From contig CAZETU010000001.1 in the NCBI GenBank assembly GCA_964514585.1, forward strand, positions 165,184 to 229,183: a DNA stretch of 64,000 bases, written 5' to 3'. Made by a program: the position numbers and the translations under genes. The notes under the pieces are model-generated. The model made no database searches, was not told where the DNA came from, and was given only the letters and a program-made list of their open reading frames with translations. The stretch's first letter is position 1; each line of letters opens with the position of its first letter. This DNA is from Candidatus Woesearchaeota archaeon. Lineage in GTDB: Archaea; Nanobdellota; Nanobdellia; Pacearchaeales; GW2011-AR1. Below are positions 19,319-44,884 of this stretch, piece by piece.

Positions 19319-20638
19319 GTGGAAGTCAAAACAAAAATTCTTACACTTTTACTTTTATTAGTTAGCTCCGTTTTATTAGTATCAGCAGAACCGTATATAT
19401 ATTGCTCAGATGGAACACCAGTCGGCTCATGTTCAACGCTAAACCCAGGACTATACTGCGACTACAACGCCTACTATAACCAAAACGGAATCTTAGTCCT
19501 CGATTCGAACAAATGCAGCGCAAACGCAGGAAAATGCTGCCAATCTACACCGGAGCCAACAACAGCAAACGAAGTCAGCACTTATTCCAAATATCTAGCC
19601 GTTAACATCCCATCAAGTGAATCCTGTTCAAACGCATACCAATATTTCGACGAAAGTTACGTCGGAACATGGGTCGATAATACATTCACCGAACAACCAG
19701 GAATTGCAAAAGTATTAGGAGGGTTCCCAACATCAATCCGTTGCATCGACTCGGGCCACAAAATCACGGCCCCAGATCAAGACCCATTTAAACCCTACGT
19801 AGGAGTCAGAGGAAAATCCGGCGCATACATGTCAGTAGAATACTCAATGGAAACTTTCCAAGACCGACAAAAACAAGCTGCCGTCCTCGACTGGACATAC
19901 TACTCAACATCCTACTTCCAACAATCAGGCTCAACCTTAGACCTATTCTTCCCAATAAATAACGTCAACATCCTAAGCTGCCAAACCTTATCAACATCAA
20001 ACATAAGATACACATTATCATCAGACTTAATCCAAAATGCCGACGAGGATTGCATCACGATAGCCGCAGAAAACATAACCTTAGATTGCCAGAATCATTC
20101 AATAATAACAACTTCATCAGCAACAATATCCGGAGTTTATTCAAATCAAAAAGCAACAGTCGTAAAAAACTGTGCAATATCAGATTTCGCTTACGGAATA
20201 AATATAGACGACACATCAAATTCCATAATTCAAGACAACACTCTAACATCAAATTCAATCACAGGAATCCGTATGTCAAACTCAGACTCAAGCCACATAT
20301 TCAGCAACAATGCCAGCAACAACCTCGAAGGAATTTATCTTTCAGGCTCAGGAAATAACATAAGTTACAACGAAATTTGCACAAATACAAACGTAGATAT
20401 CAATGCGGACAGTTCAAACTCAGGAGACGAAAATACATGCAACACGGCTCAAAATTGGAACGATGAATATTATGCAGTTTGCGCCCATCTATGTTTTTGC
20501 GAAGACGCCGATCTAGATTGTAACAATTACATAAGCAACTCAGAACTCGAAGCATACTCAACAAAATGGAAAAACGGGGCTCACGGCGTAACGAGCCTAA
20601 AACTAGCAAGACTAGCACTAAGATGGCACAATCAATAA
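19319..20638 (+). CDS. Secreted parallel beta-helix (PbH1/NosD-like) repeat protein
   Basis: Signal peptide MEVKTKILTLLLLLVSSVLLVSA. Repeats of the form NCAISDFAYGINIDDTSNSIIQDNTLTSNSITGIRMSNS. C-terminal dockerin-like DLDCNNYISNSELE. Confidence 0.6.
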   Translation: MEVKTKILTLLLLLVSSVLLVSAEPYIYCSDGTPVGSCSTLNPGLYCDYNAYYNQNGILVLDSNKCSANAGKCCQSTPEPTTANEVSTYSKYLAVNIPSSESCSNAYQYFDESYVGTWVDNTFTEQPGIAKVLGGFPTSIRCIDSGHKITAPDQDPFKPYVGVRGKSGAYMSVEYSMETFQDRQKQAAVLDWTYYSTSYFQQSGSTLDLFFPINNVNILSCQTLSTSNIRYTLSSDLIQNADEDCITIAAENITLDCQNHSIITTSSATISGVYSNQKATVVKNCAISDFAYGINIDDTSNSIIQDNTLTSNSITGIRMSNSDSSHIFSNNASNNLEGIYLSGSGNNISYNEICTNTNVDINADSSNSGDENTCNTAQNWNDEYYAVCAHLCFCEDADLDCNNYISNSELEAYSTKWKNGAHGVTSLKLARLALRWHNQ

Positions 20639-21732
20639 AAACAATACTAACAATTTTCCTAATCCTAGCTCTAGCTACACTCGCATCAGCATCGAGTATC
20701 ACAAGAAATCTTCCGACAACCCTAATAGACCAATCAGGAACAATTGATGTAGGGTTAGTAGTAGACATAACAAACACCGAAGGATTCTATCTAATCGACG
20801 AAACAATCCCAGAAGGCATGAAGGTCCTAAATCCAGGCTCAGGTTCAACCGCACAAGCAGGCCACATAAAATGGTTCATAACTTCCACAATCCAAGACAC
20901 AACACTTTACTACACGCTTCAAGACGCAACCGGCATCGAACGAGACGTCCAATTTAGCGGAACATATATTTTCGAATCAGATCCAGAAAACGAAATCTCA
21001 ATCTCAACAATATATCTAAGAATCTGCACCGCAATACCAGAACTCTGTGACGGCCAAGATAACGACTGCGACCGAGCAATCGACGAAGACTTTTCAGTCA
21101 TCAGTGAAAATTTCTCGAATGCATTAAGACTCCCATGTAGCACAGGAATCGGTGAATGTCTGTCCGTCGGAGAATACGTTTGTTCGAGTAGTCAATTAAA
21201 CACAACCTGCAGCGCAACTCCAGGAACTCCAATAACAGAAATATTCAACGGGTTAGACGATGACTGCGATGGAACAATAGATAACGGAGTAAGTGGCGGC
21301 GGCGGCGATGACGGAGGTTCTTCAGGCGGAGATGACGGCGGTTCCGGAGGAGGCTCAACAACCCCAGTCAACAACGAAACAAACCAAACAATTGAAGAAG
21401 ATAGTTCAGACGATGACGACGATGACGACAACAACGATTGCACAGAACGTTGGGAATGTGGAGATTGGCAACCAGAAGAATGCGAATATGAAGATACCCA
21501 AATCAGAACTTGTTCAGACAGAAGAGATTGCGGATCAGAAAAAGACAAACCAGAACTAACAAGAGAATGTTCAGCCCAACCCCCAAAAGACAGTTCTCTC
21601 AAAAATATTTTATTAACGGGAAACGTCGTCTCAAAAGTTTCATCACAAGGTCCATTGACAATAATCCTAATCATAGGCGTCCTAGTTATAATCGTCCTAT
21701 ATCTTTTAGTTATGTTCCCAAGAATCAAATAA
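20623..21732 (+). CDS. Secreted Cys-rich protein with MopE-like CxDxDxDCD motifs, G/D/S linker, poly-D tract and C-terminal TM anchor
   Basis: Start set at MAQSIKTILTIFLILALATLASA (signal peptide). Motifs CDGQDNDCDRAIDEDF and LDDDCDGTIDNG. GGGGDDGGSSGGDDGG linker, DDDDDDDNND tract, then C-terminal LTIILIIGVLVIIVLYLLVMFPRIK. Confidence 0.5.
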   Translation: MAQSIKTILTIFLILALATLASASSITRNLPTTLIDQSGTIDVGLVVDITNTEGFYLIDETIPEGMKVLNPGSGSTAQAGHIKWFITSTIQDTTLYYTLQDATGIERDVQFSGTYIFESDPENEISISTIYLRICTAIPELCDGQDNDCDRAIDEDFSVISENFSNALRLPCSTGIGECLSVGEYVCSSSQLNTTCSATPGTPITEIFNGLDDDCDGTIDNGVSGGGGDDGGSSGGDDGGSGGGSTTPVNNETNQTIEEDSSDDDDDDDNNDCTERWECGDWQPEECEYEDTQIRTCSDRRDCGSEKDKPELTRECSAQPPKDSSLKNILLTGNVVSKVSSQGPLTIILIIGVLVIIVLYLLVMFPRIK

Positions 21733-37812: not shown

Positions 37813-38181
37813 TTACACCTTCGCCATCGAGAACACAGTTTTCAGCGCAACAATAATCGTAGCAGGTACAAATAACACCAATAGCGATGTCAAAACATTC
37901 CTAAGAGCAGTCACAACATAATTATTCAAAGCAACATATTTCAAAGGCTCAACTCCAAGCGCCCCAACAATAACCAAAGAAAGACTCGCTAACAAAAAAG
38001 TTTGAGAATTTTTATCGCCAACATTCATAAAACCAACGATAAGACCAATAAGAACCAAAGCAGAATAAAACAGCCCACCAGCCTGCTCAAGCGATTTATT
38101 GAATAATCCAAAAACAATAGCCAAAACAACACCTGTCAAGAACGCATATGCCCCCAGCAAATTCTCTCTCGATTTCACCAT
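37813..38181 (-). CDS. Hypothetical membrane protein (4 TM)
   Basis: 122-aa hydrophobic ORF. Confidence 0.45.
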   Translation of the reverse strand: MVKSRENLLGAYAFLTGVVLAIVFGLFNKSLEQAGGLFYSALVLIGLIVGFMNVGDKNSQTFLLASLSLVIVGALGVEPLKYVALNNYVVTALRNVLTSLLVLFVPATIIVALKTVFSMAKV

Positions 38182-38290
38182 AATATTACATAATTCATAA
38201 ATTTATAAACTTTCTCTTAACTAGCTCAAATCAATATTATCCAAAAAGTATCGAAAAGTTTATAAAGTGACGTAATTCAATAATTACAAC

Positions 38291-40042
38291 ATGAAACAAA
38301 ACAAATTCACAATTTTGGGGATTTTCGCAGTTTTACTTCTAACTTTAGGTTTGGTTAGCGCAACGACAAGTAGCGTTATGTCAATCGACAATTTAATTAC
38401 CCCAACAAGTGTAGCAGAGAACGCAGGTTCTTTCACGTTCACTTTTAATATAACTTACACAGGAGCATCTTCAGACGCAAACATTTCTTTCGCAGATTCA
38501 ATTGTTTCAACTTTCGGGACATTAGTAATCCCAAACGCAGAAAATATGGATGGTGTTGCATCTGAAACAAAAACAATTACAGGAACAGTATCAAACTTCG
38601 CAGATAAAGGCGGACAGGACTTAATAGTTACAATAAACGCAACAAAAGATTCAGCAAGAGACGATGAAACAAATTTCACAGTTTCAATTACTGACGTAAC
38701 AACAGACGTATACGGATGTATGGACTCAAGCGCAAACAACTACGACTCATCTGCAACAGTAGATGACGGATCGTGTACATACGACGACCCGAACTACAAC
38801 TTCTGTGAAATTAACGGAAATGTAGGAGACTTAGAAATAGCAGACTTTGTAATAAACAACCTTGGAAGAGGAGAAGATGAAGAGTGGGAATTACTTGATG
38901 AAGTAGAAATCGAAGTAGAAATCGAAAACACACACAATACAGACGATGTAGATGATGTATTAGTAGAAATCAAAATCATGCACAACGGAGAAGACGTTAC
39001 AAGCGACTTCGATCTTGACAACGAAGAAGTAGACTTAGGAAGAATCAAAGACGACGAATCAGAAATAGCAATCTTCACAATTGACGAGGTCCCAGCAGAT
39101 CTTGACGAAGGCGATTATAAATTATATATTAAAGCATACTCAGAAAATGACGAAGATACGCAGTGTATAGCAGAATCAAATGACATGGACAAAGACACAT
39201 ATCAAGAAATCAAGATAAACAGAGAACACGATCCAGCAGTTGTTGTTAAAGAAGATATCTTAAAAGTCTCAGCTTCATGTGGAGACGAAAACGTAATGTT
39301 AGCTCTAAACGTATATAACTTAGGTTCAGATAAGGAAGAAAAGGTTTTGGTAACACTATCTAACTCACTCCTTGGAATAGATGAAAAGATAGTTATCGAT
39401 GACTTAAAGTCAGGAAAAAGGAAAGAAGTAACATTCTTCTTCGACGTCCCAGCAGACTTAACAAAAGAAATCTATGACTTAGAAGTTATGACCTATTTCG
39501 ACTACGACGATGACGAAGACGAAATGGACCTATTAGCTTATGATGAAGATTCAGACGAAATTGACGAAGACTACTCAGTAAGATTAGAAGTTTTATCTTG
39601 CCAAGGTCCTTCACCAACAATTAACGTAGCTTTAGAATCTGAAATGACTCTAGGCGAAGAATTAGTAGTAAAAGCTAGGATAACAAACAACGGAGCAGAA
39701 AACGATTTCGCGTTCACTATTGTAAACTACGAATCATGGGCAGAACTTGTAAGTGTGAGCACACAGTCTACATCAATCAATAAAGGAGAATTCGAAGAAA
39801 TCACAGTAACACTTATACCAAAAGAAGAAGGAGTCCATTCTTTCAATATCAACACGATATCTGACGGAGAAACATACACTCAGCCGGTATCAGTAAACGT
39901 CGCAGGAAGCCCAACAATCATCGAAGGAATCAGCGACCCAATCTTCTACATAATCATAGCAATCGTGGTAGTCTTAGTATTAATCCTTTTAACTTTGATT
40001 ATAAGAGTTGCATCTAGAGGAAGCAAATCTTCAGCTTATTAA
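38291..40042 (+). CDS. Acidic secreted surface protein with signal peptide and C-terminal TM anchor plus basic tail
   Basis: Signal peptide MKQNKFTILGIFAVLLLTLGLVSA. Long D/E-rich body. C-terminus ISDPIFYIIIAIVVVLVLILLTLIIRVASRGSKSSAY. TTTATAAA at -25. Confidence 0.55.
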   Translation: MKQNKFTILGIFAVLLLTLGLVSATTSSVMSIDNLITPTSVAENAGSFTFTFNITYTGASSDANISFADSIVSTFGTLVIPNAENMDGVASETKTITGTVSNFADKGGQDLIVTINATKDSARDDETNFTVSITDVTTDVYGCMDSSANNYDSSATVDDGSCTYDDPNYNFCEINGNVGDLEIADFVINNLGRGEDEEWELLDEVEIEVEIENTHNTDDVDDVLVEIKIMHNGEDVTSDFDLDNEEVDLGRIKDDESEIAIFTIDEVPADLDEGDYKLYIKAYSENDEDTQCIAESNDMDKDTYQEIKINREHDPAVVVKEDILKVSASCGDENVMLALNVYNLGSDKEEKVLVTLSNSLLGIDEKIVIDDLKSGKRKEVTFFFDVPADLTKEIYDLEVMTYFDYDDDEDEMDLLAYDEDSDEIDEDYSVRLEVLSCQGPSPTINVALESEMTLGEELVVKARITNNGAENDFAFTIVNYESWAELVSVSTQSTSINKGEFEEITVTLIPKEEGVHSFNINTISDGETYTQPVSVNVAGSPTIIEGISDPIFYIIIAIVVVLVLILLTLIIRVASRGSKSSAY

Positions 40043-40095
40043 TTCTCAAAAATCAAAGCACTAAAGTTTTTTAAACAACCTTTCAATGTAATTAT

Positions 40096-40653
40096 ATGGA
40101 CAAAGAATCCAAAAAAATCATAGGATTATTCTCGAGATACATCGTTATAATATTAGCAGGGCTCGGCAATTTATATTTGTTCTACAAAATTCTAACTCCA
40201 ATCACAATAGTAGTTCTAAGATGGGCGATATCCATCTTCACAACCCCCGTGTTCACAAATAATTTTATTTTCATCAAAGGTATAGCCATAATAGAAATCG
40301 TTCCAGCATGCATCGCAGGAGCCGCATTCTATCTATTGTTTATATTGATATTCTCAAGCGCAGATATAGAACCCATAAAAAGACTTTACGCAGCAATCAC
40401 AGCATTTGCAATACTATTCGTGCTAAACATCCTAAGAATACTGCTACTAATCCCCATGATCAGACTCTCATATTTCGCAGTACTTCATTGGACATTCTGG
40501 CACCTTCTATCAACAGTATTCGTACTAGCAGCATGGTTCGCTGTCGTAAAAATATACAAGATCAAATCAATACCAGGTTACTCAGATTTGAAATATATGA
40601 AAAGCCTAATGCAATCCGGAAAAAAGACCAAACGAAAGAAAAAGAATAAGTAA
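40096..40653 (+). CDS. Miniature exosortase/archaeosortase-family membrane protein (candidate sorting transpeptidase)
   Basis: 185 aa, 5 TM. Cys in VPACIAGAAFY (compare exosortase CSG), and N-x-x-R in VLNILRILLLIPM (compare the exosortase Asn/Arg motif). Sits immediately downstream of a C-terminally anchored surface protein. Confidence 0.4.
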   Translation: MDKESKKIIGLFSRYIVIILAGLGNLYLFYKILTPITIVVLRWAISIFTTPVFTNNFIFIKGIAIIEIVPACIAGAAFYLLFILIFSSADIEPIKRLYAAITAFAILFVLNILRILLLIPMIRLSYFAVLHWTFWHLLSTVFVLAAWFAVVKIYKIKSIPGYSDLKYMKSLMQSGKKTKRKKKNK

Positions 40654-41085
40654 TCCTGCAATCAATATTCCCAAAGCAATAGCAACAAAACTTCTAAACC
40701 TGTCCAACTCCATCATCCACGCCACAGCTGCCCCAGTCCAAGCCCCAGTCCCCGGAAGTGGAATCGCAACGAAAAACATCAACGCAAGATAACCCCAATC
40801 ATTCATCTTGAGTTTAATCTTCTCAGACTTATGATGAACTTTGTTTAAGAATCGTCCAACGACAGCTCGATAAATCCTGTTTTTCATCAATAACTCATGC
40901 AAGAAATCTAAAAACAAAAAAACAAAAAATATCAATAAAATATTTAATATCAACACAATAAGAAAATAAGGCCAAACAGAAATCTGATTCCTAACACAAT
41001 ATTCAACAATAACAGGAAGCCCACCTCTCAATTCAAAAATCGGCAATATAGTCAGAAGAAGCCCAATTAAAATTTGAGTATCCAT
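40606..41085 (-). CDS. Small membrane protein, Sm_multidrug_ex-like (COG2426-type)
   Basis: LPIFELRGGLPV motif near the N-terminus, 4 TM. Confidence 0.4.
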   Translation of the reverse strand: MDTQILIGLLLTILPIFELRGGLPVIVEYCVRNQISVWPYFLIVLILNILLIFFVFLFLDFLHELLMKNRIYRAVVGRFLNKVHHKSEKIKLKMNDWGYLALMFFVAIPLPGTGAWTGAAVAWMMELDRFRSFVAIALGILIAGLLILFLSFGLFSGLH

Positions 41086-41771
41086 TATTTCTTTCCGCCA
41101 AAATCATCAAGAGTCTCAATCAAAAACTTCTCAACAGAGCTAATATCATTACAGTCATCAATATAAATTGTATAGCAATAAAGATTTTTTTCGTCTTGAG
41201 TTATTTTTGATTCATCACCTCTGTCCACAACAACCAAAGTCCTATCAGCAACAATCTCACACGTCGCATAAAGCCTCTCATTCTCTACAGCAACAAACTT
41301 ATCAGTCGAAGCAACTTCCAAGGCTCCAACCCCAACACCTTCTCTCAAAAAAGCACCCAAATCAATCATCGCCCTAGATATTTCACCTCGACACTCATCA
41401 ACTTCAGGGCTTATCGAAACAATTCCTCCATGCTTAAACATGTCAAAATTTCCCTCAACAGCAACGTCATTCTTTCTCGGATCTCCCCTCAAATAAATGT
41501 TATAGTTAAGGTTTGAACCATCTAATGCCGCAAATCTCCCGTGATAAATTCTCAAATTTTCATAATCCTCAATTCTCCAATCAGCGCCAACATATTCAAA
41601 ACTCTTAAGGCTCCCCATATAAAAATACGGAACAAAAAAGCTAGCAAAAAGAATAATAACAATTACAAAAAACCAAAGAGCCTGCCTATTCTCGTTCTTT
41701 TTCACAGACTCTTTAACATCAGCATCACCTTCAGTAACATTCTCTTTTTCAACTACTTCTTTCTTTGCCAT
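41085..41771 (-). CDS. Hypothetical N-terminally anchored extracellular protein
   Basis: 228-aa ORF with a single N-terminal TM. Translationally adjacent to neighbours downstream of the S-layer gene. Confidence 0.4.
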   Translation of the reverse strand: MAKKEVVEKENVTEGDADVKESVKKNENRQALWFFVIVIILFASFFVPYFYMGSLKSFEYVGADWRIEDYENLRIYHGRFAALDGSNLNYNIYLRGDPRKNDVAVEGNFDMFKHGGIVSISPEVDECRGEISRAMIDLGAFLREGVGVGALEVASTDKFVAVENERLYATCEIVADRTLVVVDRGDESKITQDEKNLYCYTIYIDDCNDISSVEKFLIETLDDFGGKK

Positions 41772-41780
41772 ATTCTAAAA

Positions 41781-42371
41781 TTAAAAATGTAAAACCTCAT
41801 ATAAAAATGCATCGGCTCCCTTTATATAATCACCGACGATATAAACACAGTTACCATTCTGATAGACCATATCTTCATCACCCTCCTCAAAAATTATCAA
41901 ATTACTATTGCAGTCCTTCACGGGCAAATCTCCGTTACAAAAACTCTCATTCAAATCCTCATCACTCCCATTAAACCCCTCTGGCATCACGCAGGCCTCC
42001 TGATACCTCAAAACATAATCAGCAATATTACTCAAAATTTCACTAACAGCTTGATTCGACCCAACAAAATAAATCGGTTGCCCAGTATATTGCCCGATAT
42101 CATAAACTCCTTCAATCGAAACATTCTCAACTTCTGAAGGCAAATTTTGAAAACCAAAAACTCGTCCATCAAGAGCAGCCTTCCAAAGTCCATTTTCTCT
42201 ATAAAAATCAATATCACCTTCAGTCACCTTCGATTTATCATCATCATCGCCATTAAATAAAGAATATCCTAACGGAGCTATCACCAATAACCCAATCATA
42301 ACGACTCCAATAATAATTTGATTCCGATGCCTTTTTTTATCAATTTCCGCCTGCGTTTGAATTTTTCTCAT
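41781..42371 (-). CDS. Hypothetical N-terminally anchored extracellular protein
   Basis: 196-aa ORF with a single N-terminal TM followed by a poly-D stretch. Confidence 0.4.
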   Translation of the reverse strand: MRKIQTQAEIDKKRHRNQIIIGVVMIGLLVIAPLGYSLFNGDDDDKSKVTEGDIDFYRENGLWKAALDGRVFGFQNLPSEVENVSIEGVYDIGQYTGQPIYFVGSNQAVSEILSNIADYVLRYQEACVMPEGFNGSDEDLNESFCNGDLPVKDCNSNLIIFEEGDEDMVYQNGNCVYIVGDYIKGADAFLYEVLHF

Positions 42372-42517: not shown

Positions 42518-44679
42518 TTATGCAGTAACTATAGTTCCTTCAGTAGCAGATGTGCCTTTTATCTTAGTTCCGACAGTTGTATCAACGTCTTCATTAATCA
42601 AATAAGTAACACCCTTTTCTGTATCAGGAGCATTGTAACCAGCAACTAATAGAGCAGTCTTTCCAGATCTACTAAAAGATTGGATCAAAAACTCACCAGC
42701 AGCGATACCTGTAGCAGATGTAAATGCAGCTTCACTGTATGCACCACCAAGTAACTCAGCAGCAACAGCGTTGATAGCAGAACCACCAACAACAATCAAG
42801 TTCTTTCCAGCAACAGTAGCAACAGCGTTGTCCATTACCGTCATAACACCAGCCTCTGTAGATGTACTAGCGTCACCGCCAGCAACAACAGAAACACGTG
42901 CATAAACTCGATCACTTGGAACACTAAAGACAATCTCATCGTTATCCAAGTTAGCCTCTGGAGTCTGGATAATCTGACCGTTTGTAGTCATGATATCGTT
43001 ATCATAAGTACCAACAGCAGTACCGCCAACAGTTAAGTCACCAGCAAGACCATCCTCTTTATCAGTAGTTTCACTGTCTCCACCGAACCACTTCAATTTA
43101 CCAGCAGTACCTGTCAAATTAACACCACCAACATCAATAGTAAATGGTTGAGCAGCCTCACCGTCAACGAAAGTTATCATCAAGTTACCATTTGTAACAG
43201 AAACATTCATTGCAACAGTAGTATCACCAGAAATCAAATCACCAATATCTTGACTAACAATATCTGCAGTAGCAGTATTATTACTGTCTGAAGTATGTGC
43301 TACAGAGAACCTTGGTCTGATAGAATCTTGAATAGTTCCATCAACGTCACTATAGAACACTTCTAACGAAGAGTTAACTTGAGTTCCTTGTGTCGCATCT
43401 GTAGAACTAGCCCATCTAAGATAAATCTTAGAAGTTTCTTGACTAAGTGTCTTTAATACGATAGAGTCCTTAACTCCATCAGTAGACTCAATAATCAAAA
43501 CAGGAGCATCTAATGTATTAGCAGTAGATGTCAAATCAGTATTGTTCCATAAGTCTTCTGTATCATCGAAGTAGATCTTGAAGTCTTCGTAAGTCACATC
43601 AGTTGTGCCTAAGAATTTAACTTCACCGAAGTTTTCTGGAAGCAAGTAACTTCCACCTTCGTAAACTACATCGTCAGTATCTCTAGTCTCCTTTTGGTTG
43701 TATTTCACACCAACGTAACCATTAACAGAGCTTAGGTCAGCCATAGTCCAAACCCAAGTTGGGTCGTCCTCGTCTTCGCCAATATATTCTTCTCCATCAC
43801 TATAAGTCTTGGAAATTTCTTTACCAGCCTTTATAATGATTTTGCTAAGTTCAGGAGCATTAGAATGATATCCTACAGTGTCAACCTTAACCTTTATGCC
43901 ACCAATCTTCTTAGTTGAACCTGCTGTGATAATCTCTCCATTAATTTGTGCTTTCCCCTCGAAAACATCATCAACTGTAAGAGTCACACCGTCAACGGTA
44001 GTACTCTCTCCAATTGCAAGAGAAATTTCATCAGAAGTAACAACTGTAATAGTAGTATTGGTCATAGAATCAATCTCATATTGCTTTCCAAGAAGAGTCA
44101 AGTAAAGAACGTCAGCAGTACCGCCAGCGGCAGCCCAATCTGCAGTTACATTAAAAGCATCGTCAAATACATATCTGTATTCAAGAGCTTTATCATTAGT
44201 CATAGCAAGAAGTTCACTAAAATCATTATCATCTAATGTAGTTTTAATGGCCATCGTACCAACTCTAATCTCTTCATGAATGTTATAATCATCAGCACCA
44301 GAAGCACCACCGTCATCCCAGTTGAGTTTTGTGTCAAGTAGAGAATCGATCTTACTATCTGTAAGTGTAGATGTTATTTTAGAAGCAGCACTAGACGTAG
44401 TTAAATTAATATAACCACCAAGAGCAACTTCATCTTCTGTAACTCCAGTAGCACCTGTTAAAGTTGTAACAGAACCACCTGCAGTTGCAGCATCCAAATT
44501 AGAAGCAATACTAGAAGCAGCAATATTGTCTGAAGGAGCTGCGTTAGCACCAACAACAATTGCAGTGTTACTTGTAAAAGGAGCCGGGTAAGAAGCAGCA
44601 ACAGCTGTACCTACAGTAGCACCTATTAAAGCAGCACTTCCTAATACTGTAATAGCTTTTCTAAATATTTTTTTCATTA
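42518..44679 (-). CDS. S-layer-like secreted protein (T/G/A/V/D-rich, Cys-free), start reassigned to MKKIFRK
   Basis: Strong Shine-Dalgarno AAAGGAGGT lies 11 nt upstream of the ATG at 44677-44679. Signal peptide MKKIFRKAITVLGSAALIGATVGTAVAAS. 720 aa. Confidence 0.6.
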
Positions 44680-44884
44680 TTATTAAACCTCCTTTCAGTA
44701 CCATTAGCTTAGCCGCCTTGTTCAAGGCCGTGGTAACCCACGTTCAACGTTTCTAATAGTCTGGCAGGATCTTATAACTAGGGAGCGTTATAAGTTGTCA
44801 TCTCTAGGGTGTCCCTATATGTACACTGACTAGTCAATGCATTATTGATAAACAATAACGCCTGACTATAACATCCATTTTTCC

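Follow-up and report, generated by a model that had tools for sequence, protein, structure and literature searches.

A probable pacearchaeosortase and its adjacent PACE-CTERM surface protein in a Woesearchaeota-type archaeon

We analyzed a 64,000-nucleotide (nt) stretch of DNA from a Candidatus Woesearchaeota archaeon (assembly GCA_964514585.1, contig CAZETU010000001.1, positions 165,184 to 229,183), hereafter called the window. The window carries the archaeal markers L37ae, prefoldin, SepF, Dph2, and Spt5. Two open reading frames (ORFs) on the same strand, one of 583 amino acids (aa) at 38291..40042(+) and one of 185 aa at 40096..40653(+), lie 53 nt apart. An earlier note, made from the sequence alone, had proposed that the smaller protein is an archaeosortase-like enzyme and the larger one its substrate; the coordinates and lengths that it gave for the two ORFs were confirmed. 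The pair has the following features (TM, transmembrane; Ig, immunoglobulin).

38291..40042, + strand: putative PACE-CTERM target protein, 583 aa, with a signal peptide, four Ig-like domains, and a C-terminal tripartite signal; family NF033506
39926..39949, + strand: signature motif G-I-S-D-P-I-F-Y, target residues 546-553, which abuts the TM helix
39950..40003, + strand: hydrophobic TM segment of 18 residues, target residues 554-571
40004..40039, + strand: basic tail R-V-A-S-R-G-S-K-S-S-A-Y, predicted to be cytoplasmic, target residues 572-583
40096..40653, + strand: putative pacearchaeosortase, 185 aa, with four predicted TM helices and both termini inside; family NF033505
40309-40311, 40426-40428, 40435-40437, and 40486-40488, + strand: codons of sortase residues Cys72, Asn111, Arg114, and His131, respectively

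Both proteins matched curated NCBIfam families at scores well above the respective cutoffs of 80 and 110 bits. The 185-aa protein matched NF033505, "pacearchaeosortase," with 138.9 bits (E = 1.7e-40, profile positions 2-162 of 167), and the 583-aa protein matched NF033506, "PACE-CTERM-PROT, putative S-layer protein," with 295.5 bits (E = 9.2e-88, profile positions 169-623 of 627). The first of these matches came from a search of exosortase/archaeosortase hidden Markov models (HMMs) of the kind that the earlier note had suggested as a check, and it was accompanied by weaker matches to ArtD and TIGR04178. We conclude, with a probability of about three in four, that the locus encodes a pacearchaeosortase and its single dedicated PACE-CTERM surface-protein target in a Pacearchaeota/Woesearchaeota-type DPANN archaeon. 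The enzyme-target pair has already been curated and named by NCBI, and some relatives in GenBank are already labeled "pacearchaeosortase" and "putative S-layer protein." This is, then, a rediscovery and not a new system. Exact-sequence lookups found both proteins in NCBI, JGI, ENA, and Logan, in each case with no recorded name.

The pairing was evaluated in 83 related loci (numbered with an L prefix). Of the 66 in which the DNA upstream extends for 2.5 kb or more, 65 carry the substrate gene ahead of the sortase gene. When HMMs of the C-terminal signal were used instead, a single carrier adjoined the sortase in 65 of 87 loci (the window and near-identical copies included), and two carriers were found in none of the 87. 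Most of the loci without a signal match either had no upstream DNA or carried a third flavor of the signal that the HMMs missed. Among the six-frame ORFs of the window, only the 583-aa protein matched the signal HMM (45 bits, E = 1.6e-13), the next-best ORF having an E value above 2, and the sole match in each of six related loci was the gene directly upstream of the sortase. With both family models above cutoff, adjacency in 65 of 66 loci, and at most one signal carrier per locus, the proposal of a sortase-substrate pair was upheld. The earlier note had also named the absence of the signal from all other proteins as grounds for rejection, a yardstick that does not apply to dedicated one-to-one systems (10.1101/2023.06.07.544157).

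Only one other window protein ends in a C-terminal TM helix and a short basic tail (…LVMFPRIK). It is encoded at 20524-21732(+) by a stop-to-stop ORF of 402 aa (388 aa from the ATG at 20566), lacks a PACE-type motif, and shows a sub-threshold match to MopE-type metal-binding proteins. A search of a collection of 5.8 billion proteins with a 41-residue signal profile returned only two short fragments and missed known full-length members, a failure of its positive control. For two substrate homologs at the edge of the family (P0224 and P0240), the contigs are too short to show whether a sortase is present or absent.

The C terminus of the 583-aa protein has the tripartite organization first described for it, consisting of the motif G-I-S-D-P-I-F-Y, 18 hydrophobic residues, and a 12-residue basic tail, and the motif is indeed neither PGF nor PEP. 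A C-terminal TM helix is present in 118 of the 120 listed target homologs; the other two are truncated, and NCBI marks one of these as partial. A preceding motif and a basic tail are also present in most of the homologs. Signal statistics were derived from 90 sequences of the window's branch anchored on the conserved Tyr, which gave the consensus F-x-G-[ILV]-[SDN]-[ND]-T-x-L-Y-x-I-x-G-I, followed by a hydrophobic stretch and [KR]-[VI]-S-R-R-x-x-K-P-Q-F. In a looser form, the conserved motif reads G-[ILV]-[SDN]-[ND]-x-x-[LF]-Y. The Tyr is the best-conserved residue of the motif and is invariant in an alignment of 46 sequences (A3). The string I-S-D-P-I-F-Y, as originally read, is thus present and ends in the conserved Tyr, but its Pro is specific to the window protein, and the family consensus has Thr. 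The distance from the Tyr to the first Lys or Arg is exactly 18 residues in 80 of the 90 homologs. The tail has 11 to 12 residues in 60 of them, with a mean net charge of +3.4, and its last residue is Phe in 65 homologs and Tyr in four, including the window protein.

The 185-aa protein contains P-A-C-I-A-G at residues 70-75 and N-I-L-R at residues 111-114. The likeness drawn from the outset between the Cys, Asn, and Arg of these motifs and the invariant residues of exosortases and archaeosortases was borne out: together with His131, Cys72, Asn111, and Arg114 are invariant in an alignment of 26 homologs (48-65% identity) and at least 90% conserved among 84 sortases from 113 GTDB species, down to ~30% identity. 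A Cys/Arg/His triad has been inferred for the exosortase/archaeosortase superfamily (10.1101/2023.06.07.544157). Cys72, Arg114, and His131 match this triad and are placed at the predicted extracytoplasmic ends of consecutive TM helices. For these comparisons, the defining features of archaeosortases were taken from PMC9263693, PMC6098224, and 10.1101/2023.06.07.544157.

All 26 aligned relatives matched the superfamily model TIGR04178 at E ≤ 0.01 (best, 1.5e-7). Further matches were to ArtD (25 of 26), ArtE (11 of 26), and Pfam Exosortase_EpsH (PF09721; 14 of 26). The window sortase scored 19.7 bits against ArtD (TIGR04175), far below the cutoff of 125, and did not match TIGR04125 (ArtA), which three of the 26 relatives matched weakly. 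A Pfam scan of the 185-aa protein gave no match, PF09721 included, which is probably why the small protein looked novel from the raw sequence.

The AlphaFold model of the sortase (predicted local distance difference test [pLDDT] score, 78.5) shows four long helices. Residues 51-67 form an external beta-hairpin, and at the C terminus there is a short amphipathic helix. The N and C termini are both strongly basic and therefore expected to be cytoplasmic by the positive-inside rule, which implies an even number of TM helices. Together with the model, this gives four helices and not the five counted earlier. The conserved polar residues are then predicted to sit near the outer face of the membrane, which is also where the substrate motif would abut its helix, an arrangement that supports the pairing. 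The enzyme is small next to ArtA, which has about 300 aa and more TM helices as opposed to 185 aa and four helices here. The label of a miniature is a relative one; nearly all of 335 sortase homolog clusters are 175-200 aa long, and the curated models of several other subfamilies are equally short (ArtD, 150 positions; ArtE, 153; XrtH, 158; XrtX and XrtY, 168; NF033505, 167). A Foldseek search of the PDB with the sortase model yielded nothing significant (best E = 1.7), and a PDB sequence search yielded 0 matches. There is, as a result, no solved relative against which the active-site geometry could be checked.

Across the related loci, the sorting signal occurs in three flavors that track the sortase subclades.

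T1: L-Y ... K-P-Q-F, 34 loci, the window among them
T2: [LY]-[IL]-W-x-I-G-x-x-N-[IV]-[IL]-L ... V-A-V-R-x-S-R-R, 30 loci
T3: N-W-F-I-Y ... N-I-I-L-I-I-A, 9 loci

The T2 and T3 pairs outscore the window pair on the NCBIfam models, with 163-192 bits for the sortase and 390-568 bits for the substrate, and the curated models therefore appear to be centered on these two flavors. The T2 and T3 relatives also score 23-33 bits against TIGR04178. Judged by these scores, the window pair appears to be a divergent but included sub-branch of NF033505/NF033506. The presence of an intramembrane Asn in the substrate helix, as in T2 and T3, goes together with that of an Asn in the second TM helix (TM2) of the sortase: both were found in 39 loci, neither in 31, and only five loci were discordant (70 of 75 concordant). 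This co-occurrence is suggestive of a helix-helix contact. The discordant loci are L005, L037, L043, and L046, with the sortase TM2 Asn but none in the substrate helix, and L047, with the reverse; the signals of L005, L043, and L046 are also atypical in that they lack a Tyr or Trp landmark. The discordant loci may represent transitional lineages. Co-variation of a cytoplasmic I-P-x-Y-S-D region of the sortase with the K-P-Q-F tail was also considered and rejected, as I-P-x-Y-S-D is kept in all three flavors.

The 583-aa protein begins with a signal peptide (residues 1-24), whose hydrophobic region and V-S-A24 end fit the alignment consensus, in which Ala24 is at least 90% conserved. Four Ig-like beta-sandwiches follow at about residues 30-134, 181-310, 317-434, and 443-538. 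The ectodomain consists of Asp and Glu to 23%, as opposed to a median of 13% for the long ORFs of the window, and has an isoelectric point of 4.05, in agreement with the initial view of an acidic secreted protein. In the AlphaFold2 model (pLDDT, 86.7), the signal-peptide helix is followed by the four beta-sandwich domains, and a short linker leads to a single TM helix (residues 549-575). Foldseek searches of the PDB with this model retrieved tandem Ig-like arrays (HYDIN/ASH-type domains, alpha-2-macroglobulin MG domains, and PrgB), and the S-layer glycoprotein from Haloferax volcanii (7PTP) was matched at E = 2.6e-9. The predicted fold is compatible with a surface-layer component but not diagnostic of one, being only a generic tandem Ig-like array.

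Between Ig-like domains 1 and 2, a Cys-bounded module (G-C-M-D-S-S-A-N-N-Y-D-S-S-A-T-V-D-D-G-S-C-T-Y; 38714-38782(+), target residues 142-164) is absent from the family consensus, and the confidence of the model falls just past it, at about residues 161-180. This module may resemble a small disulfide module that is common in marine Bacteroidota surface proteins.

The sequence comparisons place the pair in an envelope island that numbers about six genes and is conserved in related loci. The neighboring genes, the candidate regulatory elements, and two insertions found in subsets of the related loci are as follows.

37813..38181, - strand: 122-aa multi-TM protein, divergent neighbor, in 55 of 66 related loci; no Pfam or NCBIfam match
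38259..38266, + strand: archaeal TATA-like box (TTTATAAA), which ends 24 nt upstream of the substrate ATG; read from the sequence itself
40043..40095, + strand: 53-nt substrate-sortase spacer, in which a T6 run (40067-40072) overlaps a TATA-like TTTTAAA (40069-40075)
40606-41085, - strand: Sm_multidrug_ex gene (PF06695, E = 7.5e-31), convergent with the sortase
41085..41771, - strand: protein of 228 aa, anchored by an N-terminal TM segment; lies downstream of the sortase in 58 of 59 loci, at all divergence levels
41781..42371, - strand: protein of 196 aa, likewise anchored by an N-terminal TM segment; found in 58 of 59 loci, at all divergence levels
42518..44725, - strand: secreted protein of 735 aa from an S-layer family (PF05124 S_layer_C, E = 2.8e-8), lacking a C-terminal anchor
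L031, L035, L044, L046, L049, L055, L057, L060, L065, L068, L072, and L082 (e.g., L035:3335-3952, - strand): related loci with a PAP2 gene
L041:2856-3251, L048:3624-3959, L062:3613-3963, and L081:3348-3749, + strand: gap-filling small protein

The 735-aa protein scored 34 bits against PF05124 (cutoff, 23.9) and was found in at least 43 of the 83 loci, where the 4-kb flank reaches far enough. The product name of NF033506, "putative S-layer protein," is uncertain, because it may be this anchorless neighbor that forms the lattice. The 228-aa and 196-aa proteins match no Pfam or NCBIfam family and show no similarity to each other. Each has a Cys-containing ectodomain, and both are candidate accessory envelope or assembly factors. 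The Sm_multidrug_ex gene, which lies between them and the sortase, is kept in 27 of 59 loci and absent from 32. Its 3' end overlaps that of the sortase gene by 48 nt (40606-40653), so that the Lys-rich tail of the sortase is antisense to the Phe/Leu-rich end of the Sm_multidrug_ex protein; the overlap recurs in L001 and L004-L006.

In 12 of the 83 loci, a gene for a PAP2 lipid phosphate phosphatase (PF01569, E ~4e-19) is found directly upstream of the sortase on the opposite strand. It sits between substrate and sortase in those of the 12 loci where the substrate gene was found. This insertion may hint at a link between the anchoring pathway and lipid metabolism. A different subset of loci has a conserved small protein of ~110-130 aa between substrate and sortase, encoded on the same strand and belonging to no Pfam family.

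The TATA-like box before the substrate gene is suggestive of a promoter element. Within the spacer, TTTTAAA ends ~20 nt before the sortase ATG, and the spacer would allow read-through, a separate weak promoter, or both. A scan for bacterial (sigma-70) promoters and terminators gave results at or below chance, as expected of bacterial models applied to archaeal DNA.

Relatives of the sortase were found in 113 GTDB species representatives. Nearly all of the 80 listed loci are labeled Pacearchaeota, Woesearchaeota, Nanoarchaeota, or plain "archaeon." Three short contigs with typical pacearchaeosortase loci (L011, L060, and L082) come from metagenome-assembled genomes labeled Patescibacteria, "bacterium," or Dojkabacteria. 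These labels most likely reflect binning errors rather than bacterial occurrence.

From these observations, the following mechanism can be proposed. The 583-aa precursor would be exported via its Sec-type signal peptide and would stay in the membrane through its C-terminal helix, the basic tail facing the cytoplasm and the four acidic Ig-like domains facing outward. The sortase would act as a four-helix intramembrane cysteine protease with Cys72, Arg114 (together with Asn111), and His131 at the outer face, and would recognize G-I-S-D-x-x-F-Y and the adjoining helix. Cleavage at or near the motif would proceed through a thioacyl intermediate, the helix and tail being discarded. The intermediate would then be resolved either onto a lipid-headgroup amine, yielding a lipid-anchored protein as proposed for Haloferax ArtA, or onto water, resulting in release. 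The export signal, the anchor topology, the conservation of residues, motifs, and gene order, and the co-diversification of the partners can be read from the sequences themselves. Cys-mediated cleavage and removal of the helix and tail are inferred by homology to ArtA, and the scheme is least certain where it invokes transfer to a lipid headgroup.

Several points weigh against reading the pair as an enzyme and its single processed target. Gene order alone is weak evidence, since synteny with relatives extends over the whole region (L37ae, prefoldin, SepF, Dph2, and others). Moreover, the 228-aa and 196-aa genes are tied to the sortase as tightly as the substrate is (58 of 59 loci each), and because these two unrelated genes are equally linked, adjacency does not single out the substrate. 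The co-variation of the Asn residues and of the signal flavors is confounded by shared ancestry, with five loci discordant. The claim of a single target covers the 64-kb window and ±4-6 kb around the related loci. The window sortase alone scores 18.5 bits against TIGR04178 (E = 0.0019), just under the cutoff of 23. The family name pacearchaeosortase is absent from the papers in the literature searched. Finally, a conserved tail length and a terminal Phe are odd for a segment that is simply discarded, and would suggest a lasting function of the tail. Together with the synteny from L37ae to the S-layer-like gene and the equal linkage of the two other genes, this would fit a helix that serves as a permanent, uncleaved anchor, next to a small protein that acts elsewhere or is a non-catalytic partner, the adjacency being an order inherited in a compact DPANN genome. 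However, the upstream gene is the sole ORF with a tripartite signal in every window or locus examined, and the substrate-sortase adjacency was kept in 65 of 66 loci, whereas Sm_multidrug_ex was lost in more than half. The signal flavor also shifts together with the sortase clade, and the invariant Cys, Arg, and His argue for catalysis. We consider a permanent anchor very unlikely.

It is also conceivable, although we think it unlikely, that the enzyme only hydrolyzes its target, acting as a sheddase that frees the acidic Ig-domain protein from its TM anchor, so that it ends up in an outer layer or in the medium and is not re-attached to a lipid. Even for ArtA, a one-step transpeptidation is unproven (10.1101/2023.06.07.544157). 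Neither a PAP2 homolog nor a CDP-alcohol phosphatidyltransferase (PssA-type) motif of lipid-headgroup biosynthesis was found in the window, which is only part of the genome, and the anchorless S-layer-family protein in the same island indicates that anchor-free envelope proteins exist. On the other hand, the arrangement of Cys, Arg, and His mirrors that of transpeptidase sortases, ArtA processing is coupled to lipid attachment in Haloferax (PMC9263693), and the PAP2 gene inserted in related loci hints at a lipid link. Dedicated one-to-one systems are also known for CPBP-type enzymes, e.g., JDVT-CTERM/MrtJ (10.1101/2023.06.07.544157), and the small protein could in principle be an unrelated CPBP/Rce1 (myxosortase) or rhomboid-type protease with a superficial likeness to archaeosortases. 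Yet all of its significant matches were to exosortase/archaeosortase models, none of the CPBP/Rce1 and rhomboid models of Pfam and NCBIfam was matched by the window sortase at E ≤ 1, and 26 of 26 relatives matched TIGR04178. A CPBP or rhomboid identity is effectively refuted.

The preferred reading, a pacearchaeosortase with one dedicated target, can be extended to the island as a whole. The pair would then provide membrane anchoring, as one half of a two-component envelope module conserved in DPANN archaea, whose lattice is formed by the 735-aa S_layer_C protein. Enzyme and signal would have diversified together into at least three specificity flavors, with matching intramembrane Asn residues in the substrate helix and in sortase TM2. 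The sortase-processed, possibly lipid-linked acidic Ig-domain protein may serve as a stalk or anchor. The module may comprise, in order, the 122-aa TM protein, the PACE-CTERM protein with its sortase, the two anchored proteins, and the anchorless S_layer_C protein. Taken as a whole, this extension is speculative, and we regard it as doubtful.

Reviews from 2017-2018 describe DPANN S-layers as unstudied, and they list archaeosortases (ArtA-E) for part of the Euryarchaeota only. A minimal archaeosortase of four helices that has exactly one adjacent target would be a convenient reduced system, one that could address whether archaeosortases are one-step transpeptidases and which acceptor they use. 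Organisms of the Pacearchaeota/Woesearchaeota type are thought to lack full lipid biosynthesis, and for this reason the question of the acceptor is sharper here. The present analysis contributes a confirmation together with modestly new refinements: the true consensus of the signal, its three co-varying flavors, a conserved island that extends beyond the pair and holds a second S-layer-family protein, and a PAP2 gene inserted in relatives.

The pair agrees with NF033505/NF033506 in gene order and DPANN range, with both proteins above cutoff and the sortase covered over its full length; the window's sub-branch ("G-I-S-N-T-x-L-Y ... K-P-Q-F") scores below the "W...N...R-x-S-R-R" and "N-W-F-I-Y...N" branches. 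Within the superfamily, experimental support for activity exists for ArtA only (PMC9263693). In H. volcanii ArtA, Cys173 and Arg214 are essential by experiment and 41 residues apart (PMC9263693), which nearly equals the Cys-to-Arg spacing of 42 residues here and speaks for the kinship. Like PGF-CTERM, the signal studied here is tripartite, with a motif that abuts the helix (10.1101/2023.06.07.544157), and the target, with its tandem Ig-like domains, shares its architectural class with the H. volcanii S-layer glycoprotein (7PTP), which ArtA processes. In contrast, there is one target per locus and no PGF motif here, whereas ArtA has up to 52 targets per genome (PMC6098224). JDVT-CTERM/MrtJ follows the same logic of a single adjacent target with conserved residues inside its TM helix (10.1101/2023.06.07.544157), but the enzymes are unrelated, a CPBP/Rce1-type glutamic protease there and a Cys-based archaeosortase here.

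ArtD (TIGR04175), ArtE (TIGR04124), XrtH, XrtX, and XrtY have similarly short cores, with models of 150-168 positions compared to 167, and ArtD was the best non-self match for 25 of the 26 relatives. The window sortase nevertheless scores far under the cutoffs of these subfamilies, and their sorting signals and taxa differ. A two-component archaeal S-layer is formed by SlaA and SlaB of the Sulfolobales. The island likewise encodes two large secreted envelope proteins, the 583-aa one anchored and the 735-aa one not; no homology to SlaA/SlaB is claimed, and the anchor of the 583-aa protein, in contrast, is predicted to be processed by a sortase.

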